Shown here in pieces: positions 21,227 through 56,792 of a stretch of 64,000 nt of DNA (position 1 is its first letter; the number at the start of each line of letters is the position of its first letter). The stretch is from IMG/VR virus record IMGVR_UViG_3300042453_005424, positions 1 to 64,000 of that record, one strand, 5' to 3'. This DNA is from a virus. Below the pieces are notes generated by a model. It searched no databases, was not told the origin of the DNA, and saw only the letters and a list, made by a program, of their open reading frames with translations. The position numbers and the translations under genes were made by a program.

Positions 21227-21427
21227 TTAAAGTAATCCTAACGATTTTGCTATTTCATCAAAGCTAGCGTCTTCGCCTTTAGTATACCTTATCCAGCCTT
21301 GTCCTTCTCCAACTATTCTATATATTGTATTAGGCTTTCCGTCAGGAGAAAAAATTAAAACCCCTGTAGCTTTATCAGTATTTAATAATGCAGGTTCTCT
21401 AAAATCTCCAGTTACTATAACTTTCAT
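21227..21427 (-). CDS. Hypothetical protein
   Basis: 66 aa; start overlaps the upstream stop (TAATG). Confidence 0.55.
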   Translation of the reverse strand: MKVIVTGDFREPALLNTDKATGVLIFSPDGKPNTIYRIVGEGQGWIRYTKGEDASFDEIAKSLGLL

Positions 21428-21663
21428 TATAATCGAATTTTTTTCTTTGCTGCTCTCATTCTGTCATCTATAATTTCATGTTTTAACATATTGGCTAAAA
21501 TACCTACAGTAGTCGGGTCGTTTGTTTTTTCTGTAGGGAAAGTTTCGAATAACTTTCCAGCCTCGGAATGCTCCATGGCTCTTTTATATATATGGGCTGT
21601 CTGTTCGGTAGACAGCCCATATTCATTAGCGTAAGTTATGAACCCGGCTTCGAAAGCGGTCAT
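21427..21663 (-). CDS. Small protein carrying the recurrent FxxGF helix motif
   Basis: Begins MTAFEAGFITYANEYGL. Confidence 0.6.
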   Translation of the reverse strand: MTAFEAGFITYANEYGLSTEQTAHIYKRAMEHSEAGKLFETFPTEKTNDPTTVGILANMLKHEIIDDRMRAAKKKIRL

Positions 21664-21676
21664 ACTTTATGTCTCC

Positions 21677-24600
21677 TTAGACGATAAGCTTGAGGTTGAT
21701 GTAGTTCATCGGGTAAGGAACATTCAGTCTAACCTCTACATCAATTCTATCTTTATAGGTAGCATTTTGCTCAAGTCTTAAAATGTCATCTTTTGGAACA
21801 AAACTGACCAACTGGTTACCTGCTCTATATGTCCAGGTATTTGTCGCTCTAAAATTAAGCTGAGAGACAATAGCGGCGCGCACAACAACCAAGTTTTCTG
21901 GGTTGATGTTGAATCTGCCGATAAAAGGCTCAAGTGTAGCCTTCAGAGCATAACTGATCGAGTCTACGTTGGTAGTGATTGAATCTTCTGAAGTATTCAA
22001 ACTACGTTCATCAGTCGTCAACTGGTGGCGAACATAAGGCGTAGCCCCGACCACTTCTTGCGTGATCAGCCATATACCTTGCTCAGCCATCACGTTCAGC
22101 TCATCTTGAGTAAATTCAAGAACAACTTTGGATAAATCATCAGCTCCGAGATATTCTGTGTTAGTTAACCCTTGATGGGGCACAACACCAGACCTAAGCC
22201 CTGCAAGCCCTGCGGCTGCAAAATAACCCTGCTTGACGACGTTTCCGTACTTAAATGTGTCAGGGAAAACACAACGCACACGACGGTTATTGTATTCACC
22301 TCCGATAAGAGCAACATTATTGGCTCTTTCGGACCTTGTGTACATTCTAACTATTTGAACTTTGGTTAATGTACCTATCGCAGCCGGGAGCGGCTTGGTG
22401 ATAGTGAATGATGTTTGTGTGCGAACTGTATCGATAACAAATTCGTCATAAATCATCTTACCGTCAGGATTTAATCTAAAGTTCATGCGAAGACGATCGT
22501 TCGGGCGAATTCCGTCTTCTATGAAGGTTGCGTCGGGCACAGAAACAAGCTTGTATTGTATTCCTCCAACTGCGGGGTCATCTCCTACAGTAGCTTGATA
22601 CGGAGAACCATCTTCTTTCAAGTCATAAAGAACTTTAGAAGCCTCGTCTTTTACAGAAAGCCATGCAATTCTCCAGCGGCCTACCTCCGGAGTACTGTAG
22701 GCATTAACGTGCGAAACAACAGCGTCCTGGATAGGTCTATCGAATGTCATAGGAACAAAGCTATAAACTTTGTTGCTTTTTTCAGAGATCTTGATTGCCT
22801 TAGTGTAGCCGTTCAGGTCATTCGACTCAACACCGATAAAGTAAACCAGCATGTTGCTCGCATTCAAAACAGCGTCGTATACACCCTGGGCAAGCGGGTT
22901 GTCTGGGTGTACTGTGCCAAGCTTTGTGGTAACTTCTGCAAGGCTGCGAACCGAGTCGATAGCGTTTACATTATCTTGTAACAAATCTCGGTGCTCTACA
23001 AATAAGCTGGCTTTTGCTACAGGTAACCGAACCGGCGTACCAGCGTCTGTAAGCCTGTTATCATAGCTGGTAATTCCTCCGTTAATCGTTATATAGTTGT
23101 TATCAAGAACCCAGTTGGATGTCATCGTGACTAGATCTCGTGTAGCTGGAATCTGGATAGATTTCTGTACCACGAAAAGCTTGACTGTGTGCGACGTAGC
23201 GATAGACACCATCGCGTCAGGCATATCAGCAGAAAAGTCTACAACTCTTACACGACCCAGCTTTTCAGCCGTAACAGGAATGTAGTATGTGTCACCTGCG
23301 ATTAAACCCCCGTTGTTAGACCCTGCAGCGAATTTACCGGTTACACCAAAACTTCCAACATTGAATGCAGTGTTAAGCTGCGGGAGAACCGCAGAAGAAG
23401 TATCGATATCTGACGCAGTAATAACAATTCTTGCACATGTTTCAAAATTACCTGCCACAGGATCATAAAAAGCTCCACCTCTTTCGACTGTGAGCTTATA
23501 ATACATATCAGAAGGCCCTGTGTAGCCTCTAAGAGGATCAGCAGCAGCAGCTACAGGGTTAACCTGGGTAACTGCAGCTGTAACCTCAAGAGTCCACTTT
23601 GTACCTAAAGTAAAATTAGTGGTTCCTGTGAAATCTAACTTTACATTATTCAGGTTAAAATTATCTATGATAAGTTCGTCCGCCGCGTCGAGAGAAAGGT
23701 TGGTTCTTTCGATAAAAGCAAGGCTTTCGGACGAAACATTGAACCTTGCGTCAGCCAAATTTCCGCCAACTATAACTTCAATAGTATACTTGTCTGCTAA
23801 AATATTTCTACTGTTATAGCCTACATAAGCTGTAGAGGAGTTAGCCACAGTGACACCAGTAACGCTTCCTGTTCCTGGAACAAGCACAGGCGCGGCGCTA
23901 AAGCTTGCGGCCTGAGCAGCTGTATTATTAGCGTCATTGTATACCCCCTCAACAAAATAAGGGAGAGTTGTTCCTGTAGCTACACTCGCGTTCAAAACAA
24001 TGGCAGTATTGCTCAGACGAGCTAAAATTTTACGCACACCTCGCCCGCCGATAGTGATAAATTTTCCAACCATAGCCTCAGTGAATACCGCTGAAGCTGA
24101 TGTAAATGTAGTTGACCCGTTGGCTACACCATCGTTACCAGCCTCAAGTTCTCTACCGATTGTGGATGCCAGCGAAGCATCTTCTTTAGCTGTGTCTGCT
24201 CGAAGCGCTGTGATTTTACCCCGCACTGTGTTGCCGAGGTTATCGGTAACTTCTATGATATCGTTTAAAGAAACATCGCGACCACTAAAATAATTGGACC
24301 TGCTGTACCCATTGGCTGTTTTGAGCACCGCACTAGTAAAACGAATTTTATTTGTGTATTTCTGCCCTGTAGGTCCGCTTAAAAGAGCCACATCATCTGC
24401 GTGAGTGGCGTTAGACCCTAAATCAGGATTAGGAAAATATTGAGCTTCAACAGCTTCAGCATAAACTTTTGTATAATCCGGGTCCACAAGACCTCCTGCA
24501 GGAACATTAGGCACGTCGTAAGTTGTATCTACGTCAGGAAGATAACTATTTCCTGTAGCTAAATACGCACCATTATATGTTTTTGGTGCAGTGAAAGGCT

Positions 24601-24730
24601 TTTCTGAAGCTTCACTATAACGAGTTAATGAAAACTGAGGCCCAAGAATAAACGCGGGAAGCGGAAACTCTCTGAATACCGGTAGTTGAGTGAACTCTTG
24701 CTGAATTAAGACTCTTGGTGTGATGTACAT
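21677..24730 (-). CDS. Contractile tail sheath protein with a large inserted domain
   Basis: 1017 aa; N-terminal YITPRVLIQQEF; C-terminal sheath motifs FTQDELNVMAEQGIWLI...VRHQLTT and DRIDVEVRLNVPYPMNYINLKLIV; AGGAGA SD. Confidence 0.9.
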   Translation of the reverse strand: MYITPRVLIQQEFTQLPVFREFPLPAFILGPQFSLTRYSEASEKPFTAPKTYNGAYLATGNSYLPDVDTTYDVPNVPAGGLVDPDYTKVYAEAVEAQYFPNPDLGSNATHADDVALLSGPTGQKYTNKIRFTSAVLKTANGYSRSNYFSGRDVSLNDIIEVTDNLGNTVRGKITALRADTAKEDASLASTIGRELEAGNDGVANGSTTFTSASAVFTEAMVGKFITIGGRGVRKILARLSNTAIVLNASVATGTTLPYFVEGVYNDANNTAAQAASFSAAPVLVPGTGSVTGVTVANSSTAYVGYNSRNILADKYTIEVIVGGNLADARFNVSSESLAFIERTNLSLDAADELIIDNFNLNNVKLDFTGTTNFTLGTKWTLEVTAAVTQVNPVAAAADPLRGYTGPSDMYYKLTVERGGAFYDPVAGNFETCARIVITASDIDTSSAVLPQLNTAFNVGSFGVTGKFAAGSNNGGLIAGDTYYIPVTAEKLGRVRVVDFSADMPDAMVSIATSHTVKLFVVQKSIQIPATRDLVTMTSNWVLDNNYITINGGITSYDNRLTDAGTPVRLPVAKASLFVEHRDLLQDNVNAIDSVRSLAEVTTKLGTVHPDNPLAQGVYDAVLNASNMLVYFIGVESNDLNGYTKAIKISEKSNKVYSFVPMTFDRPIQDAVVSHVNAYSTPEVGRWRIAWLSVKDEASKVLYDLKEDGSPYQATVGDDPAVGGIQYKLVSVPDATFIEDGIRPNDRLRMNFRLNPDGKMIYDEFVIDTVRTQTSFTITKPLPAAIGTLTKVQIVRMYTRSERANNVALIGGEYNNRRVRCVFPDTFKYGNVVKQGYFAAAGLAGLRSGVVPHQGLTNTEYLGADDLSKVVLEFTQDELNVMAEQGIWLITQEVVGATPYVRHQLTTDERSLNTSEDSITTNVDSISYALKATLEPFIGRFNINPENLVVVRAAIVSQLNFRATNTWTYRAGNQLVSFVPKDDILRLEQNATYKDRIDVEVRLNVPYPMNYINLKLIV

Positions 24731-24770
24731 ATTATTTATTTCTCCTGAATGTATTTTTTATACTTAATTA

Positions 24771-24799: not shown

Positions 24800-24813
24800 C
24801 ACATAAATAAACT

Positions 24814-27443: not shown

Positions 27444-28400
27444 TTAGACGAAGTCGATTCTGACCGCGCCCTTAACGTTACCGATAGCGAGCGAAAGGTT
27501 CATGTATTGGAAGTACTCCAAGAAGTATGCTTCGTTTTTCATGAACACAGTGAGCGGCTGTAAGCGATAATATTTACCAAAGAACTCTTCCGAAGAAAAG
27601 AGATAAATAGTTCCGTCAGGAACCAAGTCAGACTTGATTGTGTAGATGGGTTTCACGCCTAAGAGAGTCTTAGAAGGAAGGCCATTCACAAACATGTCTT
27701 GAGCAAGATCACCACCAACTTCAGAGCGACTCATCTTAACGAAGTCGTCTGCAGTAACAGTATTCATGAGCATAACACCCTTGGATTCTCCACCATCAGG
27801 CTGCGAAGGTCCAAAAGGAACGCGGAGGCGTTTGATCACTTTGAAGGCTTCTGCGACATTTTCACGAGTAATTCCGCCAGAAATGCTGCGGTATTGGGGA
27901 AGACCCATGCCGTTCAACGGGTTGACGGCGTCTCTCGTTCCGAGCACGCTATTAACACGCTCGATGAATCTAGAATCGATCTCAGCAGCAATATCCTTGG
28001 TGCTGATTTCGAGCATGATCGCACGAATGTCATAGTCGTAGCTACGAAGATGATCGATGTCCTTGTTGAACTTCGGGGATGTGATCCGTGTGAAGTAAGA
28101 AGGATAACGCGATCCGCTGAACTGATAAGCGTCCGGAACTACTCCGAGAGGAATAGTAACAGCAGGAGCTGTATCAGGCTCACGATCATTCCACTTAACC
28201 AAGAACTCGGGGTTTTCTGCCTTGTCGAGTTCGTCATTACTGATGTCGATAGGCGTCAGAATCTTTTCTGTGAAGCTCTCTTCACGAAGTTTATTACGAG
28301 TAAAAGATTGCGCTGAAACAGCGGCCTTTTTCTCTTCGCCGGCTCGAATCATTTCAACGAACGTGTCGTTGAATACTTTTTGATTTGCGATTTTTTCCAT
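27444..28400 (-). CDS. Major capsid protein (HK97 fold expected)
   Basis: 318 aa after the protease, scaffold and decoration genes; CAGGAGA SD, C-ending codon bias and a strong terminator; LREESFTEKIL and KDIAAEIDSRFI backbone-helix patterns. Confidence 0.85.
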   Translation of the reverse strand: MEKIANQKVFNDTFVEMIRAGEEKKAAVSAQSFTRNKLREESFTEKILTPIDISNDELDKAENPEFLVKWNDREPDTAPAVTIPLGVVPDAYQFSGSRYPSYFTRITSPKFNKDIDHLRSYDYDIRAIMLEISTKDIAAEIDSRFIERVNSVLGTRDAVNPLNGMGLPQYRSISGGITRENVAEAFKVIKRLRVPFGPSQPDGGESKGVMLMNTVTADDFVKMSRSEVGGDLAQDMFVNGLPSKTLLGVKPIYTIKSDLVPDGTIYLFSSEEFFGKYYRLQPLTVFMKNEAYFLEYFQYMNLSLAIGNVKGAVRIDFV

Positions 28401-29080: not shown

Positions 29081-29656
29081 TTATTTAGAAGCTGCGGCAG
29101 CTCCTTGAAACTCTTTCGGTATAGCTTCAGGATGTCCTGTAAACCAAGCTGTTTGGCGGTCCATTTCTTCTCGGCTAATTTTTGATGGATCACTGTATAT
29201 GCTCGCGGCGGCGGCCTGAGCTGGGGATAATTTCCCTTGAGCCACATTTTCTTTTAGTTCGATAAGTCTACTAATAAAATTTTCTTTTCTTATTTGTTTA
29301 AGTGCGGATTCGCGGCCCATACCTTTACCTAGACGGTAACCTGTATAACCTGGGACAAACATAAATTTTGCTCCTCTTCCTAATAACGAGGGGCGGTCTT
29401 CGATTACTCTGGTCAACAACTTCTTTTTGAACTCTTCTGGTGTGTCCGATACATCACGGAAATGGTTGGTTTTAGCTTTTTCCCTCAGATACCCTGCCCC
29501 CATACCCAAAGCAGAAGGAAGGCCGTAGTAGCCCATTTCCATAGCAGGCCCAAAAAAAGCTTTTTTTGTTAAGGAATCTATCTGAGCCTCCGGTAAACCG
29601 GACTCAGAAGCACGCTTTAAAAATCCTTCTATAAATTTTTGCTGCAACGTGCGCAT
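29081..29656 (-). CDS. Putative head-packaged membrane protein (FxxGF helix, KKA site, Gly-rich hydrophobic segment)
   Basis: KFIEGFLKRASESGL...TKKA followed by GYYGLPSALGMGAGYL. Confidence 0.6.
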   Translation of the reverse strand: MRTLQQKFIEGFLKRASESGLPEAQIDSLTKKAFFGPAMEMGYYGLPSALGMGAGYLREKAKTNHFRDVSDTPEEFKKKLLTRVIEDRPSLLGRGAKFMFVPGYTGYRLGKGMGRESALKQIRKENFISRLIELKENVAQGKLSPAQAAAASIYSDPSKISREEMDRQTAWFTGHPEAIPKEFQGAAAASK

Positions 29657-29662: not shown

Positions 29663-30055
29663 TTATTCGTCTAAAAGACTATAGTTTTGGTCATAACCGA
29701 ATGCTCGGCGCATCACAGGGTCTTCTGATGCTCCGGCCGATTTAACTGTGGCTACTTTACCCATATAAGCAACATCTGATGCAGTACAAACACGCTCAAC
29801 AATTTTAGCTAGATAACCGAGGTCTTCCTTGGCTTTTTTAAGGAACACTTCCTTCTCATCGCTATCAGTTATAAAATCAGAATTATATAGAGCATCAGCT
29901 GCTTTTTTCAAGGCAGCTTCGGTTTCTTGGTCTTTTTTAACTTTTTCAGCAGCTTCCTTTACTTGATAATCATGCAACTGATTTTTAAGCTCCTTGATTT
30001 CAGCTAAAGCCGATTTTACGAATTCTTCTATTTTGTTAGTTGCTTCGTTTGTCAT
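29663..30055 (-). CDS. Scaffold-like helical head protein
   Basis: 130 aa, coiled coil with six K-x-A sites. Confidence 0.6.
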   Translation of the reverse strand: MTNEATNKIEEFVKSALAEIKELKNQLHDYQVKEAAEKVKKDQETEAALKKAADALYNSDFITDSDEKEVFLKKAKEDLGYLAKIVERVCTASDVAYMGKVATVKSAGASEDPVMRRAFGYDQNYSLLDE

Positions 30056-30198: not shown

Positions 30199-31122
30199 TT
30201 ATTTAGTAGGTTGACCACCGACAATTTCTGTCTTGAGCTTTTCTAAAACCATGTCAGCAACAACAGAAGCTAATTTTGCCTGAGCTTCAACTTGAGCTTG
30301 CTCCTGCTTAGCTTCGGCCTGCTTAGTCTGCTCTTTTTGATAAAAACTCTCTAATTCAGCAACTTTTGCTTTAAGGGTTTTATTTTCTTCAATTGCTTGC
30401 TCGAGAGCAGCTTCTTTTAAAATAGAATCAAAGTATTCAGCTCCTGCTTCTTCTGCTTTCTTTTCGGTTAAGCTATCCTCGGATTGAAGATTCTCGGCTG
30501 CTTGGGCGATCATCAGATCAAAATCACGGCGACCGGCCTCTTTTGTAAATTCTGCTTCATTAGGAGCGGAATATTCGCTAGCGCTCTTTAAGAGAGCTGC
30601 GCAAAATTGGCGGCCTAGTTCGTAGGAAGCAACTTTAGCAGCCAGCTCTTCAACTTCAGCCTTTTTAGCCTCAGCTAAAGGAGCGCTATCGTCCGTGCTG
30701 GGCTTTTGCTCTCCTGTGGTTTGGGGTGTGTTATTTTCAGGTTTTACAGCATTTTTATCAACAGTTTCTTTGTCATCACTAATACTTTCCGATTTAACAT
30801 CTCCAGGAGTTCCCTTAACTGTATCCTGTGCTTCGCCCTGCTTGCGAATAATGTCAAGAATTTCAGCTCCCAAGGTCTCTGCTGTTTTAGGCCCGCAACA
30901 AGGTGTAGCAGAGTCGTCAGAAGGTTTCTGATGATAGCCTTGCGCTACATTTTCAGGACCTACGGAATTTTTATTAGTCGTTTCATGCTCATCGCTAATA
31001 CTGTTAGATTTCACATCTTCCCCCGGAACACCAGAAATATTTTTCTGTGCGTCGGCTGCTTGCTTTTTGACCATAGTGTGAAGTTGATTAAGGACTTCTG
31101 CGTGTTTTGTTAATTTTGCCAT
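30199..31122 (-). CDS. Capsid scaffold/core protein
   Basis: 307 aa, acidic and helical, with about 12 K-x-A sites, an internal ~55-aa duplication and a CAGGAGA SD. Confidence 0.7.
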   Translation of the reverse strand: MAKLTKHAEVLNQLHTMVKKQAADAQKNISGVPGEDVKSNSISDEHETTNKNSVGPENVAQGYHQKPSDDSATPCCGPKTAETLGAEILDIIRKQGEAQDTVKGTPGDVKSESISDDKETVDKNAVKPENNTPQTTGEQKPSTDDSAPLAEAKKAEVEELAAKVASYELGRQFCAALLKSASEYSAPNEAEFTKEAGRRDFDLMIAQAAENLQSEDSLTEKKAEEAGAEYFDSILKEAALEQAIEENKTLKAKVAELESFYQKEQTKQAEAKQEQAQVEAQAKLASVVADMVLEKLKTEIVGGQPTK

Positions 31123-31178: not shown

Positions 31179-31181
31179 TAT

Positions 31182-45885: not shown

Positions 45886-48876
45886 TCAAACTTCAACGCG
45901 GTCGCCAACATCTAATTTACCGGCTAAAAAATCTCTTACAACTTCTTGCGCTGAGCTATATTTAATAGGTTTATTTTTTTTATCTTCAAAACTTGCAGCG
46001 AATAAACCTGTAGCGGCCTCGTTCGAAGGAGTGAATATCGGGCTGAATGTTCTGTGGTAGATTAAATTTTTCTCAGGCAATAGCTTTTCTTTGATTTCAT
46101 CTTTAGCTTCTTCTGTCGCCGGAACTTGCACATTCAACTGATCTCCATCACAATCAGCGCCGAAACCTTTAAACACCAAAGGATTTAATTTAACTGAAAA
46201 ATCTTTAGGATCAATATTTGTCTTTAGATAGAAACCTTGAAAATTATATTTAGATAATTGCGGATCTCGAGTAACAATTCCTGGGCGGTCCTCCATCTCT
46301 AGCTGGAGTGCATTAAGCGCCAACGGATGTTTTGTATCTAAGTATTCTCTAGCTTTAGTTGCAGGTATTCCTTGTTTAACCAATCTTCGAATTATAAAAG
46401 GAGCATATATACTCCAAGCAACATTTTGAGGAATGCTCGCTTGATTCAGATCTAACTTCGAATCAGGCAATAACACAGCTCTTCCTACCAAATCAATTGG
46501 TTTGTTAACAACTTTTGCCTGAAACATGGATTCTTTGGCTGACCCGCCGTGAACGCCTAACGCAGTAGCTAGTAAACCTTTATACCCTTTCTCTTTACTT
46601 TTTTGAGATATTGGGTCACCTAAACCATATATAGCTTGAGCACCTTCGTAAATTTTCTGTTTTGCCGCTCTAATGTGTTCAGGAGAAATATCCTCTATTT
46701 TTTCAGCATCTTTCAAAGATTTATTGACAAGCATCAAATCTTTATATAGCTCATTAATATCTGCCGAAAGAACTTGATCTCCCTGTATAATAATAGGGCG
46801 ATACTGTGCAGGAATAATTGGGATTTTAGATAACAACATATCACTAGGCTTGAGCCCGTGTGATTTAAGCATAGTTAAAAAGCTTAAACTTTTGACTGCC
46901 TCGTCTCTTCCGGATTTACGTTTGGTAGCAATAAATTGTTTAAGCTCATCAATTTTATTCTCTACATCTATAGCTTCTAATTTCTTTTCAAGCTCACCAC
47001 TAGCGATAGCCGCTGTATAATTCGCCTTGGTCATTTTTAACATTTTACGTAAATGTTCTTCAGCCATAGGATTAGGTATTTTATGACTCAACTCAATGTG
47101 ATTGAAATTATCTCCGTACAACCCAACATATGTAGGGTCAAAAAGGCCGTGCTCCTCATGCTGCAATTCATCTTTTTTTAACTTGTACGTGAGAGGATTT
47201 TTAATTTCCCCTGATGATAATGAAACAATATCTTTATCGGTTTGAGGAAAAATATGAAATTTTGAACCTTCCTGCTGAACATTAATTCCTGCTCCACGAA
47301 GATGCCCAAGAAACTTATTAAATATAAATGGTACTTTTGGAGGGGGTGGAGGATACCCTAATTTGAGGGCAGTCCAATAATCATCGTTTTTAGTAGAGCG
47401 CACCGTAGCGATATCCCTAAGCACTGCTTTCGCGTCATTCGATAAAGCAACCGTCGTAGCCAAGTTACCTATTCGTTTAGCTTTTTCTGTTGTTCCGGCC
47501 TTTGAAGGCTGCATATTCACATCATATGTAGTTGCAGCAGATCTAGCAGAAATTTTGTCCTCAGCTATATGGTGTAACCTGTTAAAATAAAGAGGTCCTG
47601 TTAGCACTTCGACCTGTTTGCCTGAAATTGGATCATAAAGCTTTTCAGTGTCTTTAATTCCTGCTTTGTCCAACGCGTCTATTACTTTTTGCACCGCAGA
47701 ACCTTCAGTAAATCCGGTCATATTGAGAGCTTTGCCTTTTTTCTGTGCTAATTTACCTAGCCCGATTGTATTCACCAACCCAGGAGCAACGCGAGAAGTG
47801 ATGCTCATGGAATTAAGGATAACATCCACAGGTTTGCCGTCTTCGTCTTGTGGCATTTGCGTATCAGCAGCGATGTGTACCACTCCTTTAGCTCCGAACG
47901 GCATATTCAATTTATCCCCAAACCCCATAGGGCGCTTTGTTTTAACAGTTACAGTTATAAGTTTACCTGTGTTAACTGAGTCAACCACTGTTCCTTCGTG
48001 CTCATATTCCCATGTTGTAGAAATATCATTAAAAGCATTTCTAATCACTTTAGATAACTTTCCAAGTTGTATATCCAATGATTTAAGTGTTTTAGGCTGG
48101 AAAGCCAGGATCACGGGATCTCCAGGTCGCAAAACTGTTCCTTTTTTTACTACTCCCTGAGAATCTATGGTATCTAATTGATCGTTATAGAACTTGTTAG
48201 GAAACAATGAAATATGCTGATTTTTATCTGTGGAAACTCCTCTAGCCACCTCTAAACGAATAGGGATGAGTTGCTCTCCTTCGAGTTTTTTTGCTGCAGA
48301 TTCAGATATAACCAAAGCATCCTCAAAATTAAGAGAGCGATAAGGCATAACCGCGGTTTTCAAATTCATACCTAGGGCTAAGTTGCCTTTATCATCTGAA
48401 TAATTCGAGGTAGCCAATAATTGCCCTTTTTCTACCTTGTCTCCTATTGAAACCGTAGGTTTGTGGTCTATATAACTTTCTCTTCCGACGATATAATTTG
48501 AATATCTGTCGTGCGTATGCTCTTTACCTGAAGAGTCTTTGATAACAATGGTATCATCATTAATTTTTGCAACTTTACCTGCAACTGACGATCTGATGCT
48601 TACTAAATTTCCAAAAAGCTGGTTAAAACTCTGTTTTCCTCCTTTAGGAGCTGACTGAACTAACGGAGCTTCTCGATTAGTTAACGTCATAGCTTGCAAC
48701 GAAGACTTATCCCCGATCAAAACGCGAGCCCCAGAAACAGAGCTGATTCCTGGAATTAAATTGGTTACAGGACTAAAAAACTCGGAAGGATCTGGTATAG
48801 TATATTTGGCTTTTTCAGATGAGGAAACTTTTTTTAATTTCCCTGCCACCAGCATATATTTATAATTTTTACCCAT
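45886..48876 (-). CDS. rpoBC: Phage multi-subunit RNA polymerase, fused beta C-terminal / beta' N-terminal catalytic subunit
   Basis: Beta motifs: GNLALGMN...NFEDALVIS, GDK...GAKGVV, MP.DEDGKPVDVILN...SR, LHHIAEDKISARS. Then beta' motifs: SSGEIKNP, HIEL, IPIIPAQYRP, GRAV and catalytic GADCDGDQ. Confidence 0.95.
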   Translation of the reverse strand: MGKNYKYMLVAGKLKKVSSSEKAKYTIPDPSEFFSPVTNLIPGISSVSGARVLIGDKSSLQAMTLTNREAPLVQSAPKGGKQSFNQLFGNLVSIRSSVAGKVAKINDDTIVIKDSSGKEHTHDRYSNYIVGRESYIDHKPTVSIGDKVEKGQLLATSNYSDDKGNLALGMNLKTAVMPYRSLNFEDALVISESAAKKLEGEQLIPIRLEVARGVSTDKNQHISLFPNKFYNDQLDTIDSQGVVKKGTVLRPGDPVILAFQPKTLKSLDIQLGKLSKVIRNAFNDISTTWEYEHEGTVVDSVNTGKLITVTVKTKRPMGFGDKLNMPFGAKGVVHIAADTQMPQDEDGKPVDVILNSMSITSRVAPGLVNTIGLGKLAQKKGKALNMTGFTEGSAVQKVIDALDKAGIKDTEKLYDPISGKQVEVLTGPLYFNRLHHIAEDKISARSAATTYDVNMQPSKAGTTEKAKRIGNLATTVALSNDAKAVLRDIATVRSTKNDDYWTALKLGYPPPPPKVPFIFNKFLGHLRGAGINVQQEGSKFHIFPQTDKDIVSLSSGEIKNPLTYKLKKDELQHEEHGLFDPTYVGLYGDNFNHIELSHKIPNPMAEEHLRKMLKMTKANYTAAIASGELEKKLEAIDVENKIDELKQFIATKRKSGRDEAVKSLSFLTMLKSHGLKPSDMLLSKIPIIPAQYRPIIIQGDQVLSADINELYKDLMLVNKSLKDAEKIEDISPEHIRAAKQKIYEGAQAIYGLGDPISQKSKEKGYKGLLATALGVHGGSAKESMFQAKVVNKPIDLVGRAVLLPDSKLDLNQASIPQNVAWSIYAPFIIRRLVKQGIPATKAREYLDTKHPLALNALQLEMEDRPGIVTRDPQLSKYNFQGFYLKTNIDPKDFSVKLNPLVFKGFGADCDGDQLNVQVPATEEAKDEIKEKLLPEKNLIYHRTFSPIFTPSNEAATGLFAASFEDKKNKPIKYSSAQEVVRDFLAGKLDVGDRVEV

Positions 48877-49515: not shown

Positions 49516-50688
49516 ATGTCATTGGCCATCGAATCAGCAAAACTAACGAGAATAGAAGAAATATTAGTCACCCGAGAAACTTCTCCAGTTGAAAATCCAC
49601 CTCCGAAACTGACTCAATATAAAAACTCGGTATGGGAAGGAGAGAGCGCGCCTACCGAATACACAATCGCTAAGTTTATCGAAACAGAGCAATCCAGAAC
49701 TCATTCAGACGAATTAGTCTCTTCCAAGGCTTCAACAGTATCTAGCAAGCCAGTTAAAGGCATACTCGATATAAACTGGGCGAATCCGAGGGATTGGGTT
49801 AGAAACTGGAAAGTTATTCCTCTCGACGAAAGACTGCTTATAAAAACATTGTTTACCTCACCACTAGCCAAAAACGGAAATCGCTACGGGCTAAAGCGGT
49901 TTAATCTCGGAAGTCATCTAATGCAGTGCATAGGAGTCGATATGACCAACATTATCGGAAACGGTATTTGTGCTGTGAAATCGAATCTAATAAACGAGCT
50001 GGGATACTATAGCGATTACTGCGCGAACAACCGGGCCATGGATCCTAAAACCTGCCGAAGGGCTTTTGCTAAATTCATGAAAGACAACAATCCTCAAAAA
50101 CTGTTCGAATCTGGGTATGTAGCCTTTCACGCTGTTGTAAACTCCGGAGAAACCTTGAAACACTTGGATAACGATATCGAAAGCTATAAGAAGAAATTAT
50201 GGAGCTTTTACGGAAAAAACTGTAAAGTTTTCCGAAAGCTGAAAAAGAAAAAACTGGTTTCCTATATGATTTATGTTCACGAAATGTCTACTCGAAATCT
50301 TTTGAGCAAAGAGTTGAACCCGCATACGCACGTTATGTTCTTTTTCAAAGACCCTGGGCTCGGAGGTTCAGAGCTTGAATGGATGAGCCGTGAGATTGTC
50401 CGAGAGTTCAACAATATCTCTGAAGAAGGAATTATGAGTCCTAGCACCGAAGTAGTCGGGGACTCGGGCGAAAGAGCTGTTCGAGTAGCAAAAAAGTGGA
50501 ACTCGAACACGAAGAAATCCGTAGGCTACTATTTCAGGGTATGTTCCACAGTAGAAAACTACCTGAAAGAAATAACCCCGGAAAACATACGAGAATTAAA
50601 TATAGCCACTCGCGAAAATTGGTGGGTAGTTCGTCAACTTATGAGTGGAAAGTCCCAGCGGAGATTCGGTTATACAAGAATACGTTAG
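49516..50688 (+). CDS. HUH endonuclease, rolling-circle Rep-like (Rep_1/IS91-type motif order)
   Basis: YC.NNR.MDP..C, motif I-like FHAVVN, motif II HEMST...NPHTHVMF, motif III-like VGYYFR and terminal GKSQRRFGY; ATG 49516. Confidence 0.6.
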   Translation: MSLAIESAKLTRIEEILVTRETSPVENPPPKLTQYKNSVWEGESAPTEYTIAKFIETEQSRTHSDELVSSKASTVSSKPVKGILDINWANPRDWVRNWKVIPLDERLLIKTLFTSPLAKNGNRYGLKRFNLGSHLMQCIGVDMTNIIGNGICAVKSNLINELGYYSDYCANNRAMDPKTCRRAFAKFMKDNNPQKLFESGYVAFHAVVNSGETLKHLDNDIESYKKKLWSFYGKNCKVFRKLKKKKLVSYMIYVHEMSTRNLLSKELNPHTHVMFFFKDPGLGGSELEWMSREIVREFNNISEEGIMSPSTEVVGDSGERAVRVAKKWNSNTKKSVGYYFRVCSTVENYLKEITPENIRELNIATRENWWVVRQLMSGKSQRRFGYTRIR

Positions 50689-50758
50689 AAACAAGCGCGA
50701 ACCAGTTTTGTTAAATAAAAGTTTTTACCTAGGCTTTCGAGCACGCACATCTACTTTG

Positions 50759-50787
50759 TTGCAAACCACAAAAGATTTCGATACAAT
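50759..50787 (+). promoter_or_regulatory. Sigma70-type promoter for the plus-strand cargo operon
   Basis: TTGCAA-17 nt-TACAAT. Confidence 0.65.
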
Positions 50788-50827
50788 TATAAAAACCGGA
50801 GCATACCCAAATTTTAACCAACAAACC

Positions 50828-52810
50828 ATGCACATTGATTCAACACACGCTCACTCGCCGGAAAACGCCGAACTGAACAACACTATGGAAAAAGCGTCTC
50901 AAGAAAAAAAGGCGGTTACCTTAATAGAAGCCGCCATCGCGCCATTCTTAACCGGAGCTGTCGGAGCAGGAATTGGGGCTTTAGCCAACAAGGAGGATCG
51001 ATCCGCTGGGGCACGGCGAGGAGCGTTAGTCGGAGCCTCGCTGCCTCTAGGAGCACTCGGCGGTATAGTAGCTTCTGGAAATACCGGCGCTTTGGCAGGA
51101 CCGTTAGCCGGGGCAGCTTTGGCTGGAGGAATAACACATCATCTCACAGGAAAGAATAAAACGGATGAGCGCCCGAAAGCTTCAGAGCTATCCGAAGAAG
51201 AAATCCTAGCTCAGCTCAACAGCACCGATCTGAGCAATTCGGAATTCGAACGAGGATTCAAAGAAGCTTGCGTAGAACTAGGTGCGGACCGAGAGTTCGC
51301 CGAAGGCTTTATCGCTCAAACAACAAAAGAAGCTGAAATCGCTGAAGGGCAGTATTTAAACCATGTTCAAAACGAGCTTTCGAAGCTCGCTGAAGAATTC
51401 GGTGAAAACGCCAGCTTTTCCATAAGCGAAATCAACGAGTTTACTAAATCCATGAGCTTGTTTAAAGAGGCTGCGGAGAAAGAAGCAAGAATGTTCTGGA
51501 AAGGCCTCGAAGAAGAACTTCAAAAGCAAGGATACGACAGAGATTTTGTGGATGGAATGAAGTATGAGCTTACCTCCACGGAGTTAAATTCGATTATAGA
51601 GAATAACTTTGAAAAAAGTGCTAGCATGGGTTCTTTTTTAAGAATGGCTCTGAGTCCAACACTTTGGAAACGTCCAGGAGCGCAGCTTAAAGGAATAGGC
51701 GCCGGAATCACAAGTGGTGCGAAAGGAGTTCAGAAGTTCGTGAGTGATTTGGCAAAAGCTCCGGGCGGAGCCGTAACCAACCAAGCAGGCGAGGCTGTTA
51801 TGCACAGTTCCGCGCCAAAACATATTCCGGGCTCGAGAACCAAAGCTTACGCAGATGCTTACGAAGCAGCTCTCGGAGCAAAGCCGCTTGCCCCGAAAGG
51901 CCAAGGAATAATAGACTCAGCAAGAGACTCGGCTATTTCACAAGGAAGCACTGCACTTAGAAGAACAGGTGACGATGCTTTTCAGCAGGAAATGTATAAC
52001 CTGAGCCGTGAAGCCAGAAATAGCGGCCCTGGGGGCGCTGCGGCCCGGGATGCTCTCGATAGGTTAGGAAAAGGAGACTTCGGAGGGATTGCCGGGCGAA
52101 TGGGTATGGACCCGACAAAAATGAACCAGTTCGCAGGAATGAGCGCAGATGATATACGTAGAGCTAACATTCCGTCCGAGGATGTGCTCGGAGCGGCTCA
52201 GCGATACGGGGCCGATGCGACTGCGTCCGGGTTTAACATGAGTGGAATACCTATGCCTAAAATGAACCCGAACGTGTTTCACGGAGGAGCCCCTAATCGT
52301 TGGTTTAGATTTTCTCCAGGAAAAGCTATGGGTTACGGGCTTACCGGAGCGCTAGGCGGGTCTATGCTCGGACCTCTAGGAACTGTGGCAGGAGGGCTGG
52401 GCGGAGCAGCTCTCGGAGGCTTGGGTGTGGGGGGAGCAGCCCTCGGAACCGGAGCCGCGGCAGCAGCAGGAACCTACGGGGCTGGAAAAGTCCTAGGGCT
52501 CTGGGGGAAAGACAAAGCTACCGATTTGAGCGGCGCCCCAACGGACCGGAATAGAGCTATTCCGATGCTTAAAAACAATTGGACCGGAGGCGTGGGTGGT
52601 CTCATAGTTGCGAGTTTGCTCGCGAATCAATTAGGGCTTCAAGGACCTATGGCATGGATTGTTCCTCTCCTGGGCGGAGTGCTTGGGTACAACTATTTTC
52701 CGCAGCTTATGAACAAATGGAAAGACCCTTACGGCTACGGAGCAAACGCAGTCTCGGGCGGAGCAGCTTTCCAGAACGCGGCCTCGCCGATAACTCCTAG
52801 GCAACCATGA
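50828..52810 (+). CDS. Large putative head-packaged glycine-zipper membrane protein
   Basis: Four FxxG[FLM] helices, EKKA/TKEA/EKSA sites, and several Gly-zippers including GYGLTGALGGSMLGPLGTVAGGLGGAALGGLGVGGAALG. Start moved downstream of the promoter (50828, or 50885). Confidence 0.65.
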   Translation: MHIDSTHAHSPENAELNNTMEKASQEKKAVTLIEAAIAPFLTGAVGAGIGALANKEDRSAGARRGALVGASLPLGALGGIVASGNTGALAGPLAGAALAGGITHHLTGKNKTDERPKASELSEEEILAQLNSTDLSNSEFERGFKEACVELGADREFAEGFIAQTTKEAEIAEGQYLNHVQNELSKLAEEFGENASFSISEINEFTKSMSLFKEAAEKEARMFWKGLEEELQKQGYDRDFVDGMKYELTSTELNSIIENNFEKSASMGSFLRMALSPTLWKRPGAQLKGIGAGITSGAKGVQKFVSDLAKAPGGAVTNQAGEAVMHSSAPKHIPGSRTKAYADAYEAALGAKPLAPKGQGIIDSARDSAISQGSTALRRTGDDAFQQEMYNLSREARNSGPGGAAARDALDRLGKGDFGGIAGRMGMDPTKMNQFAGMSADDIRRANIPSEDVLGAAQRYGADATASGFNMSGIPMPKMNPNVFHGGAPNRWFRFSPGKAMGYGLTGALGGSMLGPLGTVAGGLGGAALGGLGVGGAALGTGAAAAAGTYGAGKVLGLWGKDKATDLSGAPTDRNRAIPMLKNNWTGGVGGLIVASLLANQLGLQGPMAWIVPLLGGVLGYNYFPQLMNKWKDPYGYGANAVSGGAAFQNAASPITPRQP

Positions 52811-53388
52811 TGTATCTCCACCTAGATTCTTTTATTGCCGGGGTTGTGCAAGGACTTAAAAAGGAAGCCGGTGTGGACATGGGTGCTATGCCTATAAACG
52901 AAAATATCCTCCCGAATATCTCTTCTCAAGCCAAATGGAGATATGTAAAAACAAAAGATGGTCTTCGGCTTACGGATGGAAATCACGTGTATACTTTCGG
53001 AATTCCTGAAGAATACCCTCAAGAGAGCTCTAGAGTTCTTCGAATGAACGACGAAAATTTATTGAATTTCGAGGCCGACGCTCTCTCGAAAGGAACCGCA
53101 CAAATACATCGTGCCTCTCCTGACAATATATATCTTACTTTGGCCGACGGAGAAAAAAATCCTACCTTCGCACTTCAGCACGAAACAGAGAAGCAATGGC
53201 GGTATACTCCATCTAAAAAGTTTGTGGAAAAATTGCGAGCCTCTGGTGCTCCAGTCAGTGCGCCCTCTTCTCTCAGTGAAACCGAGAAAAGCCATGCCGG
53301 GGAAAATTTAACGCTAATCAGCCCAGAAAGCCTTTTGGATGGAGGAAAGGACGAGCTCAGAAATTCTTTTGAACCTTCGAGAGGCTAA
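52807..53388 (+). CDS. Putative head-packaged protein
   Basis: N-terminal SFIAGVVQGLKKEA motif. Confidence 0.55.
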   Translation: MMYLHLDSFIAGVVQGLKKEAGVDMGAMPINENILPNISSQAKWRYVKTKDGLRLTDGNHVYTFGIPEEYPQESSRVLRMNDENLLNFEADALSKGTAQIHRASPDNIYLTLADGEKNPTFALQHETEKQWRYTPSKKFVEKLRASGAPVSAPSSLSETEKSHAGENLTLISPESLLDGGKDELRNSFEPSRG

Positions 53389-53394
53389 AGCGCC

Positions 53395-53787
53395 ATGAAC
53401 AAAACAGCTTTTCCAGAGTTAAATACTTCTCCTTTTAGTATCGGAGGAAGATCTCCATACGGGCGCCCTCTTATGGGACCTGACATGATTAGCGATCCGG
53501 TTAAAGTTATGCAGCTCGTAAGTCAAGACAAAGGGATATCCCGCGGGCAAAAACAATCAGTTATTACTATGCTTAATTCTCCGGAATTCGTGGACCATAT
53601 ACTGGTAGGTGCTGCCGGAGCAGCGTTAGGGAATGCTATAGCCAAATATTCAAATATACCTCAACCGGCTAGAACTTTGTTGAGCTTGGCGGGCTTCGGA
53701 ATAGGTAATATAATATACAACACATTACAAAACAGAGAATTTATTTCTTATGACCAAGAAACAGCCAAAGCAAAAATAAAATTATAA
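53395..53787 (+). CDS. Putative head-packaged two-TM protein
   Basis: Begins MNKTA; ILVGAAGAALG and LLSLAGFGIG segments. Confidence 0.55.
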   Translation: MNKTAFPELNTSPFSIGGRSPYGRPLMGPDMISDPVKVMQLVSQDKGISRGQKQSVITMLNSPEFVDHILVGAAGAALGNAIAKYSNIPQPARTLLSLAGFGIGNIIYNTLQNREFISYDQETAKAKIKL

Positions 53788-53791
53788 AATT

Positions 53792-54148
53792 ATGGAATTA
53801 ACAGAATATTCATCAGCAATTAAAAACGAGCTAGCTTTGGAGTTAGCTAAAAATGGCCACACGCTCGAAGATTTCGAAAACGGTCTAGCTTCCTTGAACA
53901 CAGGCGAAGGTGTTTTAAAAGTTGCTACAATCGAGGCCGGACTACTTCCGGGAGTTTTGAGCGGTGTTCAACAAGCTCCGGGACTCATATTCAAAACATT
54001 TGCCGCTGGTGGAGCTTTAGGAGGTTTAGCTGCGGACGAAATGGACAGCTCTGTAGACGAATTGAATAAATCGCTTGACCGAGAGCGTGAAAAGATTAAA
54101 TTAGTCAAAAGAATCACTGAAAACTTAAAGAGAGAGCATGGGTTATAA
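53792..54148 (+). CDS. Putative head-packaged small membrane protein
   Basis: LKVA site, FAAGGALGGLAA and a C-terminal coiled coil. Confidence 0.55.
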   Translation: MELTEYSSAIKNELALELAKNGHTLEDFENGLASLNTGEGVLKVATIEAGLLPGVLSGVQQAPGLIFKTFAAGGALGGLAADEMDSSVDELNKSLDREREKIKLVKRITENLKREHGL

Positions 54149-54533
54149 TCAAGACTACACAGCAAAACAGTCCGAAGCCACCGAGCACTTTGATTTCGGG
54201 AGTTCGTCAGGCGACCCGCTTAATTCCGTAAGCAGAAAACGAAACATCCGAAACGAAGTGACTAACAAGGGAGGATTCGACCCTGAGGTAATCATCGATG
54301 CGTTCGAAAAATCTAGAGGAATTCGCTCCCGGCAAAAGAACGAGTTAGAAAATTATAAATTTAAAAACATTATATTAGACCCTGAGAAACAAAAGGATCA
54401 AGATATGCTTAATGAGTTGATGAACAATAAGAAATATCTTATTACTTTATGGAAAGACACGTGGACGCAGCAGGGAAGTTTTCGAGTATTTATTATATAC
54501 GGCGCGAAAGAAGACGAATCAGCTAAAACGTAA
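54138..54533 (+). CDS. Hypothetical protein
   Basis: 131-aa ORF overlapping the upstream stop. Confidence 0.55.
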   Translation: MGYNQDYTAKQSEATEHFDFGSSSGDPLNSVSRKRNIRNEVTNKGGFDPEVIIDAFEKSRGIRSRQKNELENYKFKNIILDPEKQKDQDMLNELMNNKKYLITLWKDTWTQQGSFRVFIIYGAKEDESAKT

Positions 54534-54627
54534 CAAAAATCTCGGGCGAAGAATCATTTCGAGCCGGACTGCGTAGAATTTGATTTACTTATAAACACCT
54601 ATAATTGTATACTGTAGATGAATACTT

Positions 54628-55809
54628 ATGAACGAACAGATCCGGAATTTATTAAAAAAATCGCGTTGTTGGGAAGGTTATAAGCCTGTTCCAGGTAAAA
54701 AGCCTTATACCAAAGATTCTTGTGCGCCGGTGGAAAAGAAGGACCCGGAGAAAGCAGGTAGCACCAACATTCCACTCTCACCTGAAGAGAGCTATCTGGC
54801 TTCGCAGTTAATAGGAAAAAGTCTTTTTAGCGCTATCCAATTAGCTAAAGAAAAAGAAAGACAACAGAACATTTTAAGCCAAGAGCTGATAGGTGCAGAC
54901 GGGGGAGATATATTACGTATTCCTATACCTAAGAAACTTCTGCCTAATCCTACAGGGCAGAAACAAGCCTCTCATACTCCTTCGCCAGAAGCTATGTCAG
55001 CTATGCAGGATTTAATAGCTTATAATAATTATGTTCGTAAACACGGTAATCCTGATGCTTATGATGAAAAAATAAGACGAGGATTAGATCCGTTACTTAA
55101 TAGGGTTTCGATGTCGCAGGGTAACCTGCACCGTTTAGGTGATGCCGGGATTATGTCTATTTTTCCTTTTGGAAAAGCACATAAACAAAGAAAACAATAC
55201 GACCAAGACATAGACTGGATCAATAGCGAGTTGAAGAAATCCGCAAACGACGATTATTCTGATGCGCTTCACACGAACCACGAACCTGGTGTTTTAGCCC
55301 GAGCGCTGAAGTTAAATACACACCCTGTTAAAAAAATAATGGGAATGCAGAGCGGATTTCGCGACGCTAAAAAAGAATTTTATTTCCAAGAAAAAGCGCA
55401 AATTGCCCAAGAGCTGATGAATGCTCAAAAAGAATACATTGAGCTTCTGGAAAGAATCAAAACCGGTGAAGAAAAGCTCGGTAAAGCCTCGAGTACTCCA
55501 TGTGTTGACGCTTTTTGCAACGGAATAGCCCATAGCGCGCTTTTTGGAGAGGAGGCTGCGGCAAAAACCGCTGGTGCTGAAAACGTGGATATCTCCGACG
55601 GATCAATAAACCGTCTGCTGAAAGATACTTTTAGCGCAGTGAAAAAACCTTTTCAACCTGCGGTAGATACTGCGGCAAGCGGGTTACTTGCCACTTCGGC
55701 TGGAACAGCATATTTAACATATTTATTGCGTAAAAGAATGCGTGAAGAACCTGAAAAATATATGCAGGAAAAATTGCCTACCAGAGTGGAGCTGCAGCCT
55801 TATGAGTAA
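54628..55809 (+). CDS. Putative head-packaged protein with an N-terminal CWEGY module and a C-terminal TM segment
   Basis: KKSRCWEGYKPVPGKKPYTKDSC; QKQA, KKSA and AKTA sites; AFCNGI helix; GLLATSAGTAYLTYLL. Confidence 0.6.
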   Translation: MNEQIRNLLKKSRCWEGYKPVPGKKPYTKDSCAPVEKKDPEKAGSTNIPLSPEESYLASQLIGKSLFSAIQLAKEKERQQNILSQELIGADGGDILRIPIPKKLLPNPTGQKQASHTPSPEAMSAMQDLIAYNNYVRKHGNPDAYDEKIRRGLDPLLNRVSMSQGNLHRLGDAGIMSIFPFGKAHKQRKQYDQDIDWINSELKKSANDDYSDALHTNHEPGVLARALKLNTHPVKKIMGMQSGFRDAKKEFYFQEKAQIAQELMNAQKEYIELLERIKTGEEKLGKASSTPCVDAFCNGIAHSALFGEEAAAKTAGAENVDISDGSINRLLKDTFSAVKKPFQPAVDTAASGLLATSAGTAYLTYLLRKRMREEPEKYMQEKLPTRVELQPYE

Positions 55810-56161
55810 CCTCAAAGCAGCTTTTAACGCGGGGTTTTTAAAACGTGCCGAGGCTCGAGGTTTTCGAGAAGATCAGGCAGCCATGCTTCTAGGCAAAACA
55901 GCAGGAAACGGTGCATTGATAGGACGATTAATGAGTACAGCAAAAAACCTCCACAATGTTTGGCCAGCCATGTCTAAAACAAGCCCTGCGGCATACGATA
56001 AAATGTATAATACGTATAATACACTCAAAGGGCTCATGAGCCAGGGAATAGCTCCCAAAACAAACCCTAGCAGAAGAACAATACAGGCTGATTATACTAG
56101 GCTGTTGAAACACCGAGTGAATAATTTGAATCCCCAGGCGAGCAAACTTCAATCAAAGTAA
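55802..56161 (+). CDS. Putative head-packaged basic protein
   Basis: From ATG 55802: MSNLKAAFNAGFLKRAEARGF...GKTA. Confidence 0.6.
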   Translation: MSNLKAAFNAGFLKRAEARGFREDQAAMLLGKTAGNGALIGRLMSTAKNLHNVWPAMSKTSPAAYDKMYNTYNTLKGLMSQGIAPKTNPSRRTIQADYTRLLKHRVNNLNPQASKLQSK

Positions 56162-56168
56162 CTGCACA

Positions 56169-56792
56169 ATGAATTTAGACTGGACTGCATGCAATAAAGG
56201 AATAGCTGATGAACTAGAGAAACACGCCCGCTGGGGAGCTATTGGTAACGCAGCTAAGCAAGTTTTTAATTTAGGCAGAAAAGCTTTTTTACCTGCAGCC
56301 GCCGCTGGTGGTGCTTTTACGTTAGGAAAAGGTTTGTATAACAAATATAGGGATATCACAGGAACTATAGACGGTGTAGGAAATGCTATAAACAAGCTGG
56401 CTCCGGTAGGCCTTATGGCTATGCTGGCATCAGGTATGCGCAAAAGCGCACCCCAACTTCCCACACCTGCGCCTAGAGGAGCCTTTGATGCTAAGTCTTT
56501 ATTGGGTGTTAACCCTGCCGGGGTGTCTACACTAACCTCACCTAAAGTAGGTCCTATGAATATAAAAATTGCGAATCCTCTTTATGACCCTTTGCTTTGG
56601 GCTGCGAGAAATCGCGTAGCTAACCATGTTTTAAACGAAGTAACAAAGACAAGTCCGTCAGGGGCTGGTGAAAGAGCAAAACTAACCGAAGAAAATCCTA
56701 AAAAAATTGAATTAACCTCTAAATATCCTGAGCTTGCAAAGTTATTAGAAGACGAAGAAAACAAAGCTTATTTAAACAAATTGCTAGCATAA
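56169..56792 (+). CDS. Putative head-packaged membrane protein
   Basis: ACNKGIADELEKHA, then FLPAAAAGGAFTLG and VGLMAMLASG. Confidence 0.6.
   Translation: MNLDWTACNKGIADELEKHARWGAIGNAAKQVFNLGRKAFLPAAAAGGAFTLGKGLYNKYRDITGTIDGVGNAINKLAPVGLMAMLASGMRKSAPQLPTPAPRGAFDAKSLLGVNPAGVSTLTSPKVGPMNIKIANPLYDPLLWAARNRVANHVLNEVTKTSPSGAGERAKLTEENPKKIELTSKYPELAKLLEDEENKAYLNKLLA

Follow-up and report, generated by a model that had tools for sequence, protein, structure and literature searches.

A 33-residue module shared by unrelated proteins and an enriched K-x-A motif in the head region of a freshwater phage: a candidate prohead-targeting tag

The 64,000-nucleotide window analysed here (positions 1 to 64,000 of the IMG/VR virus record IMGVR_UViG_3300042453_005424) is part of a 74,454-bp phage contig and includes a 33-residue module, present in four otherwise unrelated proteins, and a short motif, K-x-A, that is enriched in the proteins of the head module. 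Genes lie on the minus strand from position 3 to 49308 and mostly on the plus strand from about 49480. The source is a contractile-tailed phage of about 190 kb with its own split multisubunit RNA polymerase. Its affinity by sequence is to Salmonella phage Arash and not to phiKZ; Arash (180.8 kb) is distant but is the only cultured relative, and the gene order RNA polymerase, 40204-like protein, protease, capsid is common to both. The comparisons included 13 relatives from IMG/VR, in contigs of up to 204 kb. Across them the capsid proteins are 83-89% identical and the other proteins only 35-65%, which gives a useful evolutionary depth.

A reading of this DNA without database searches (the sequence-only reading) had listed eleven examples of a helix shared by unrelated proteins, usually closed by K-x-A, and had proposed that it is a prohead-import tag removed by the prohead protease. 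All the cited strings are present at the genes named. The strict pattern [FY]xxG[FILMV]xxx[ACL]xxxG occurs 7 times, in 5 proteins, on the 74-kb contig, against a mean of 0.43 in per-protein shuffles, and 0 of 2000 shuffles reached 7. Since the pattern was defined after the data had been seen, an independent test was made with a hidden Markov model (HMM) built from the related phages only, with no rows from the window. This model recovered exactly five copies in four window proteins, with independent E-values (iE) of 2e-8 to 4e-17: one each in the products of 21427-21663, 29081-29656 and 55802-56161, and two in that of 31182-32195. These are five of the eleven cited helices. As for the other six, the three cited in the product of 50645-52810 are unsupported (best score for helix 1, p ~0.07 versus shuffles), the one in 54628-55809 was not recovered by the relatives-only HMM (p 0.16 versus shuffles), the one in 56169-56792 gave no match with the same model, and the N-terminus of 52807-53388 is borderline (p 0.01 versus shuffles) and was not recovered by the HMM. 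The failure of six of the eleven examples to exceed shuffled controls would suit a chance or compositional resemblance among unrelated proteins. As an account of the shared helix this is very improbable, given the shuffling result, the iE values obtained with a model from other genomes and the hundreds of matching protein clusters described below, and for the five core copies it is already refuted.

When aligned, the five instances share a unit of 33 residues, which is longer than a single helix. An aromatic residue is followed by x-x-G-[FV] and K/E-R-A-x-E-x-G, then by a capping turn, h-S-x-x-E/Q, and by a second helix ending in K-x-A; the consensus is an optional K-x-A followed by [AS]-[YF]-x-x-G-[FV]-h-K/E-R-A-x-E-x-G-h-S-x-x-E/Q-A-x-x-h-h-K-x-A. 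An HMM made from the five window copies detects the unit throughout the relatives. Its predicted fold is a helix-turn-helix, modelled by AlphaFold2 (AF2) at a predicted local distance difference test score (pLDDT) of 70-87. In the model of the 78-residue protein encoded at 21427-21663 (mean pLDDT 75) a helix at residues 3-14, a turn and a helix at 19-31 have pLDDT values of 76-87, and in the product of 31182-32195 both copies are modelled as helix-turn-helix at pLDDT ~70, the remainder being below 50. A Foldseek search of the PDB with the 78-residue model returned nothing at E<=0.001, and its look-alikes among the Atlas structures were set aside as generic two-helix matches. Homology to the whole 33-35-residue repeat of transcription activator-like (TAL) effectors was rejected as well: the profile matches in the PDB are sums of ~2-bit matches to the turn 'HGLTPxQ' only and are spurious. 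Two long repeat proteins, P0083 (1954 amino acids) and P0104 (1833 amino acids), score in the same way, through summed weak matches to the turn 'x-H-G-L-T-P-x-Q'; both, together with the TAL effectors, are false positives to be excluded from any census of the module family. A candidate copy in the C-terminal half of the protease (segment 'LLRALADKG...', hhalign E 0.41) was also discarded, and one in the product of 30199-31122 ('KVASYELG...' and 'LLKSASEY...', hhalign E 0.067; not detected with a sub-HMM) is unsupported.

Two of the four carriers are encoded in the head module, on the minus strand. The first, a 337-amino acid protein that we call the hub (31182-32195), is encoded between the protease and a scaffold-like gene. 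Its two copies (nucleotides 31728-31826 and 31491-31589, iE 1e-12 and 1e-14) are each preceded by K-x-A. An EF-hand-like loop separates them, and the C-terminus of the protein is hydrophobic and rich in Gly/Ala. Orthologues with 2-3 copies were found in 13 of 13 relatives, always between the protease and the scaffold-like gene. The second carrier, of 191 amino acids (29081-29656; HMM iE 2e-10), is encoded upstream of the capsid and decoration-like genes; its N-terminal module (29549-29647) ends in K-K-A and is followed by a glycine-zipper-like stretch. Genes at this position in the relatives keep the N-terminal module and have unrelated tails, and single-copy carriers sit just upstream of the major capsid gene. 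The loop of the hub is EF-hand/dockerin-like (D-x-N-x-N/D-G-K-I-x-x-x-D-L, residues ~170-190) and is also present in P0118, P0150, P0003 and P0005. In the hub and in certain single-copy carriers it comes after the module, and it may form a calcium-binding unit coupled to the module, although the Pfam EF-hand matches are below threshold (E 0.002-0.008).

The third carrier (21427-21663, minus strand, 78 amino acids; HMM iE 4e-17) is encoded directly after the gene for the 1017-amino acid tail sheath (21677-24730; tblastn matches to Vibrio phages D181, D148 and D69, Salmonella phage Arash and Bacillus phage G). It has an N-terminal module (21568-21663) ending in K-R-A and then a C-terminal helix, and orthologues of this family are conserved in 11-13 of the relatives. 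A Pfam match of this protein to Tape_meas_lam_C (E 0.14) is below any threshold. The earlier statement that the motif is missing from sheath, baseplate and fibre proteins holds at the HMM level, with the qualification that the tail module contains one carrier gene. The fourth carrier (55802-56161, plus strand, 119 amino acids; HMM iE 2e-8) has an N-terminal module at 55811-55909 ending in K-T-A. On the sequence, its true start is the ATG at 55802 and not the GTG at 55742, since the module then begins at residue 4, as it does in the wider family.

This last gene belongs to a second cluster (50645-56792, plus strand) of small, mostly glycine-rich proteins, among which it alone has a supported module; a Pfam match of the 50645 product to Phage_T7_Capsid (E 0.054) is below any threshold. 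In the relatives the equivalent clusters are arrays where the module stands at the start of many genes, with 8 copies in 4 kb in one genome (G002) and 9 carriers among 15 open reading frames (ORFs) on one metagenome contig. In the 393-amino acid product of 54628-55809 only an N-terminal Cys-flanked segment, C-W-E-G-Y-K-P-V-P-G-K-K...C (residues ~11-44), is conserved in relatives, where it stands at the front of proteins that vary greatly in length (up to 1308 amino acids). It looks like a second small shared N-terminal element of this cluster. Gly/Ala-rich hydrophobic 'glycine zipper' stretches are found in many head-module and second-cluster proteins (29081-56792) and in the relatives. Two relatives' carriers have Pfam glycine-zipper matches, one relative's carrier combines DUF3008, the module and a glycine zipper, and the glycine-zipper counterparts gp213, gp221 and gp224 of Arash were detected in virions.

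Six-frame searches of the five near-complete relatives (182-204 kb) detected 4-12 module copies in each, confined to two stretches that make up ~7% of the genome in four of them and ~16% in the fifth (G004). The first stretch is the head module, with the hub, the single-copy carrier upstream of the capsid gene and the 78-residue family after the sheath gene, and the second is a small-gene array matching 50645-56792 of the window. One phage (contigs L028 and L034) has a third location, where a carrier is encoded beside a K-x-A-rich gene near the large terminase gene.

A profile of 47 module copies (alignment A1) was compared with 1.84 billion representative proteins and matched 666 clusters at E<=1e-3, 94 of them at E<=1e-10. 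Two architectures were found among the top 150 matches. The first consists of small proteins of ~77-270 residues (one of 799) with a single copy, typically starting at residue 4 (M-x-T-x-Q-A-Y-I-E-G-F-V-K-R-A...), and the second has 2-4 internal copies, as in the hub; 77 N-terminal copies are present in this set. When carriers from the top matches and from fetched loci were pooled, 97 had an N-terminal copy plus at least 40 further residues, and these fell into 54 tail families with no mutual BLAST similarity. The modules on different tail families are ~50% identical. Neither Pfam-A nor PHROGs gave a match over the module in the window proteins or in consensus-like members, and Pfam gave none over it in 62 carriers, five of which include DUF6321 and one a glycine zipper.

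For the 666 clusters, genomic context was taken solely from loci in IMG/VR and metagenomes. A degenerate DNA pattern of the module core was found in 14 IMG/VR stretches and 25 metagenome contigs; among 185,579 prokaryote genomes it matched once, in a Vicinamibacteria metagenome-assembled genome that has no module at the HMM level, and this was regarded as a chance match. Every module contig with enough context shares genes with one clade, and all the placeable copies belong to this clade of freshwater (lake) phages of 150-205 kb. The module is restricted to one phage clade and, within its genomes, to two or three gene clusters. A relative's protein of 702 amino acids (L025:3596-5704) has an acylphosphatase domain (Pfam 1.6e-7) and an internal module-like segment, and also resembles the 1087-amino acid tail-module protein encoded at 14145-17408 of the window.

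The K-x-A motif was examined by comparing all 400 residue pairs one position apart with per-protein shuffles. In 22 head-module and second-cluster proteins K-x-A ranks 1/400, with 99 occurrences versus 60 expected (z 5.5-5.9), and its z is about -1.3 both in the tail proteins and in the remaining proteins. The K-x-A part of the sequence-only reading is confirmed and extended. The same bias was found in all 13 relatives (head z 4.9-8.3; tail z mostly negative), and K-x-A is the most conserved of the frequent pairs in the orthologue alignments (0.72 vs ~0.4). The K tends to have F, L or I at the second position before it and E immediately before, and the A tends to be followed by A, E or S. Sites accumulate chiefly in the protease and in the products of 29663, 30199, 31182 and 36673. 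In a complete 204-kb relative only 5 of 233 ORFs exceed the K-x-A expectation at Poisson p<0.01, namely the head-module orthologues of the protease gene and of 29663, 30199 and 36673, and a gene that lies ~2 kb from the terminase gene. Outside the window, the gene at G002 193591-194652 (L076:13591-14652; 353 amino acids) has 15 K-x-A versus 2.8 expected. The large terminase gene (GpA_ATPase, 1.9e-9) is ~2 kb away from it, and in another phage (L034) its orthologue is followed by a module carrier. The motif extends to Arash, where it ranks 1/400 in the head-module proteins gp218-226 (46 vs 21, z 6.1; L-x-K is second) and is not enriched in the tail proteins (z -0.4).

The prohead maturation protease (32257-33693, minus strand, 478 amino acids) was identified by its match to phrog_18299, head maturation protease (E 5.9e-9), its 30% identity to Arash gp222 and its position adjoining the scaffold-like and capsid module in the same order as in Arash; it has no Pfam match and no sequence match in the PDB. 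A catalytic N-terminal half is followed by a helical C-terminal half, and 9 of its 12 K-x-A sites are fully conserved. Three helical proteins encoded on the same strand are rich in the motif. The acidic, scaffold-like product of 30199-31122 (307 amino acids; no Pfam or PHROG match) has 13 K-x-A, 10 of which are present in 100% of the orthologues (188 vs 64 expected, z 17.5). The 130-amino acid protein of 29663-30055 has 7 sites (z 14.7 across orthologues; mean site conservation 0.78 vs 0.39 for all pairs), and the 481-amino acid head-module protein of 36673-38118 has 16 (z 19.3 across orthologues). The major capsid protein (27444-28400, minus strand, 318 amino acids) is 28% identical over 97% of its length to Arash gp226, which bears that annotation (E 3e-24), and has K-x-A in its N-arm at residues 3-5 and 24-26, both 100% conserved in the 13 relatives; K24-K-A26 aligns with K27-E-A29 of Arash. 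A 548-amino acid head-module protein (33697-35343, minus strand) has zero sites, and its orthologues are depleted (24 vs 62 expected, z -5.1), which is what one would expect if this protein has to withstand a protease specific for K-x-A.

These properties suggest that K-x-A is the recognition site of the head protease. It is enriched and conserved in scaffold-like proteins, as are the protease motifs of T4 and SPN3US; it is also present in the capsid N-arm and in the protease, absent from one head family and common to distant relatives that share the protease. An alternative, which we consider unlikely, is that K-x-A has a structural or binding role in helical scaffold proteins rich in Ala, Lys and Glu, for example as an L-x-K-x-A packing register or a capsid-contact motif, and is not cleaved, the module being more of the same helical material. 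In agreement with this explanation, the motif is concentrated in proteins predicted to be helical, where L, F or I stands two positions ahead of the K, and some conserved sites lie in the protease catalytic domain. However, only the exact spacing is enriched: KA, KxxA, KxxxA, AK, AxK and AxxK are not, in the same head-module and second-cluster proteins. Moreover, the K at conserved sites is not swapped for other polar residues, the 548-amino acid family is depleted, the N-arm site of the capsid protein keeps its position at an overall identity of 28%, and motifs at multiple sites in scaffold proteins are the way in which T4-type and SPN3US-type protease motifs appear (PMC7411985).

K-x-A also brackets the module. 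Among internal copies 158 of 213 start with it (profile positions 1-3), and 45-51 of the 77 N-terminal copies (58-66%) end with it (positions 28-30), followed by a stretch relatively rich in Ala, Gly and Pro. The closing K-x-A noted in the sequence-only reading is part of the consensus, two of the five window copies being exceptions. Taken together, these results show a real module joined to many unrelated tails, and a K-x-A motif that is enriched, conserved and placed at its borders.

The RNA polymerase genes lie on the minus strand between the head module and the second cluster. A 996-amino acid fusion of the beta C-terminal and beta' N-terminal parts (45886-48876; Pfam RNA_pol_Rpb2_6 at 1.4e-48, Rpb1_1 and Rpb1_2) is 32% identical to Arash gp206, and the beta' C-terminal subunit (42467-44326; Pfam RNA_pol_Rpb1_5, 3e-15) is a homologue of gp216. 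The split is unusual, and further short pieces homologous to gp206 are found on both strands (57047-57712 of the window and 64252-64944 of the contig). In virions of Arash analysed by mass spectrometry, gp206 had the most spectra and gp216 had 1210, both ranking with the most abundant proteins, and the protease homologue gp222, the homologue of the 40204 product and the head-module proteins gp218 and gp220-225.1 were also detected (PMC10585845). The Arash list comprises 116 'virion' proteins, and its authors note possible carry-over (PMC10585845). These data give soft support to a packaged polymerase and internal proteins in the lineage. The polymerase had been tied to the tag in the sequence-only reading, a link that reduces to gene neighbourhood, its genes being without the module.

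Several known systems can be set beside the module. In T4 the capsid targeting sequence (CTS) of IPI-III and Alt is an N-terminal signal on unrelated proteins with the protease motif directly after it, and its carriers are encoded by small variable genes, remain inside the head and exit together with the DNA (PMC7411985). The shared N-terminal signal on unrelated proteins is found here too, on the 97 carriers of 54 tail families. The T4 tag is ~10-20 residues long and ends in I-A-E, whereas here a 33-residue, two-helix module ends in K-x-A and, unlike the T4 CTS, is also present as 2-3 internal copies in a head-module protein. In P1, DarB's N-terminal ~30 residues are enough for directing a protein into the capsid (PMC9024508). 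Compared by description, that signal is similar in size to the module, but it is known from one protein with no cleavage motif reported, while the module is on dozens of families. In the large phages phiKZ and SPN3US many proteins are packaged, including an RNA polymerase, many of the head proteins are processed by a head protease at a short x-gapped motif, and propeptides have been proposed to target proteins into the prohead (PMC7411985). Head proteases recognize L/I-x-E in T4 and A-x-E in SPN3US (PMC7411985). The phiKZ/SPN3US motif, A-x-E or S/A/G-x-E cut after the Glu, goes with propeptides of 100-130 residues and differs from K-x-A and a 33-residue tag; a test for (S/A/G)-x-E gave no enrichment here, nor did E-x-A and other pairs. 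The capsid protein aligns with that of Arash from residue 6, which leaves no room for a long propeptide. P22-type scaffolding proteins have a small two-helix C-terminal hairpin that binds coat protein inside the procapsid and is not known to be reused on cargo. The predicted two-helix fold of the module resembles this coat-binding domain, again by description, and a search of PDB sequences with the module profile returned no scaffolding protein.

We favour, with a probability of about one half, a cleavable tag for targeting to the prohead, analogous to the T4 capsid targeting sequence, as the function of the module. It rests on the likeness to the T4 CTS of a conserved N-terminal unit that heads many unrelated tails and is followed by K-x-A, with P1 DarB as a precedent. 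We infer docking, cleavage, the exact bond cut, the location in the virion and ejection. The module would act as an address tag that docks its carrier onto the assembling prohead core, where the partner may be the scaffold-like proteins or the hub. The internal copies suggest that the hub is either a docking partner, through module-module contacts, or a core component of high avidity. After closure of the shell, the protease would cut at or beside K-x-A, degrading the K-x-A-rich scaffold-like proteins of 29663, 30199 and 36673 and its own C-terminal half, trimming the capsid N-arm and releasing the tag. The variable payloads would remain in the head and exit with the DNA. The modular tag with a protease-type site proposed earlier is partly supported, by the tail families, the K-x-A bracketing, the positions of the hub and capsid-gene carriers and the enrichment and conservation of K-x-A in scaffold-like head proteins, Arash included, with the six unsupported examples removed.

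A number of observations weigh against a prohead tag. Neither the protease (HMM; hhalign on its C-terminal half) nor the RNA polymerase genes 45886-48876 and 42467-44326 (HMM) have the module, and the tag cannot explain the packaging of these proteins. An exact K-x-A is missing from the module end in the two window copies already mentioned and in 34-42% of the N-terminal copies family-wide. Several of the conserved K-x-A sites are inside the folded catalytic domain of the protease, where their conservation may be structural. The module HMM did not match T4 IPI, IPII or IPIII even at E 1000, and the N-terminal signal of those proteins, a decapeptide, is much shorter than 33 residues, so that the resemblance to the T4 signal, on which the first proposal had drawn, is not one of sequence. 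A tblastn search with one consensus-like module protein gave no match in 50,697 cultured phage records, and the clade that bears the module is known from sequence, with no cultured member. Arash has no module, and therefore the only cultured relative can serve to test K-x-A and not the tag. Its scaffold-like gp223, encoded at the hub position (L014 locus 23210-23977), has three tandem repeats of ~31 residues, each starting with K-x-A (L-E-K-A-A-A-V-N-x-L-I-x-x-G-x-x-F-x-E-A-V-E-L-V-K-E-A-S), which resemble the second half of the module only, and weakly so in a profile-profile comparison (E 0.006 at 6% probability). An analogous Arash tag built on these repeats was considered and dropped, as their HMM finds nothing else in the 47-kb head/tail region. 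The coverage of gp223 in the Arash virion data was 100% (PMC10585845), and this full coverage, together with the 116 proteins listed, means that those data neither prove packaging nor show processing.

Part of this evidence would fit a different role, in which the module serves injected or early proteins as a general docking domain that, for example, binds a shared phage or host partner after entry, or loads proteins onto the tail or ejection apparatus, and is not a prohead-import signal. K-x-A could then still be the scaffold protease site and be structural within the module. The conserved carrier of 21427, whose tail-module gene directly follows that of the sheath, counts for this explanation and against a head tag. 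So does the second cluster, a hypervariable array of small genes like accessory or host-takeover regions, variable arrays being typical also of early host-takeover regions. The third carrier location in some genomes, the lack of the module in the protease and RNA polymerase, and the generic nature of the helix-capping turn G-h-S-x-x-E, which also gives the spurious summed matches to TAL repeats, point in the same direction. What makes a general docking domain rather improbable is that in every relative the place of the multi-copy carrier, between the protease and scaffold-like genes, is fixed and single-copy carriers lie beside the capsid gene, and that K-x-A at both ends of internal copies goes beyond structural need.

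Targeting propeptides and head-protease motifs are known kinds of signal. The novelty lies in the module family, which Pfam, PHROGs and cultured phages lack, in its scale of hundreds of clusters and more than 50 tail families, and in the K-x-A motif. The K-x-A result is independent of the tag: it predicts a specificity of the head protease that is common to cultured Arash and can thus be tested with existing material. If the module is a tag, it would be the first of its kind to be defined by a sequence family that spans hundreds of proteins and not in one model phage. The repertoire of injected proteins of abundant uncultured freshwater phages would become readable from sequence, diversification of this repertoire by the swapping of tails behind a fixed tag would be demonstrated, and a compact label for loading proteins into capsids would be at hand. 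A broader and more speculative proposal, which we regard as doubtful, is that the module is a universal label that loads more than 50 fast-evolving, unrelated payload families into the capsid, where each would be released by a head protease specific for K-x-A and then be injected with the DNA and the virion RNA polymerase. If true, this would be a phage system corresponding to polymorphic effector delivery, and the module a natural plug-and-play label for packaging.

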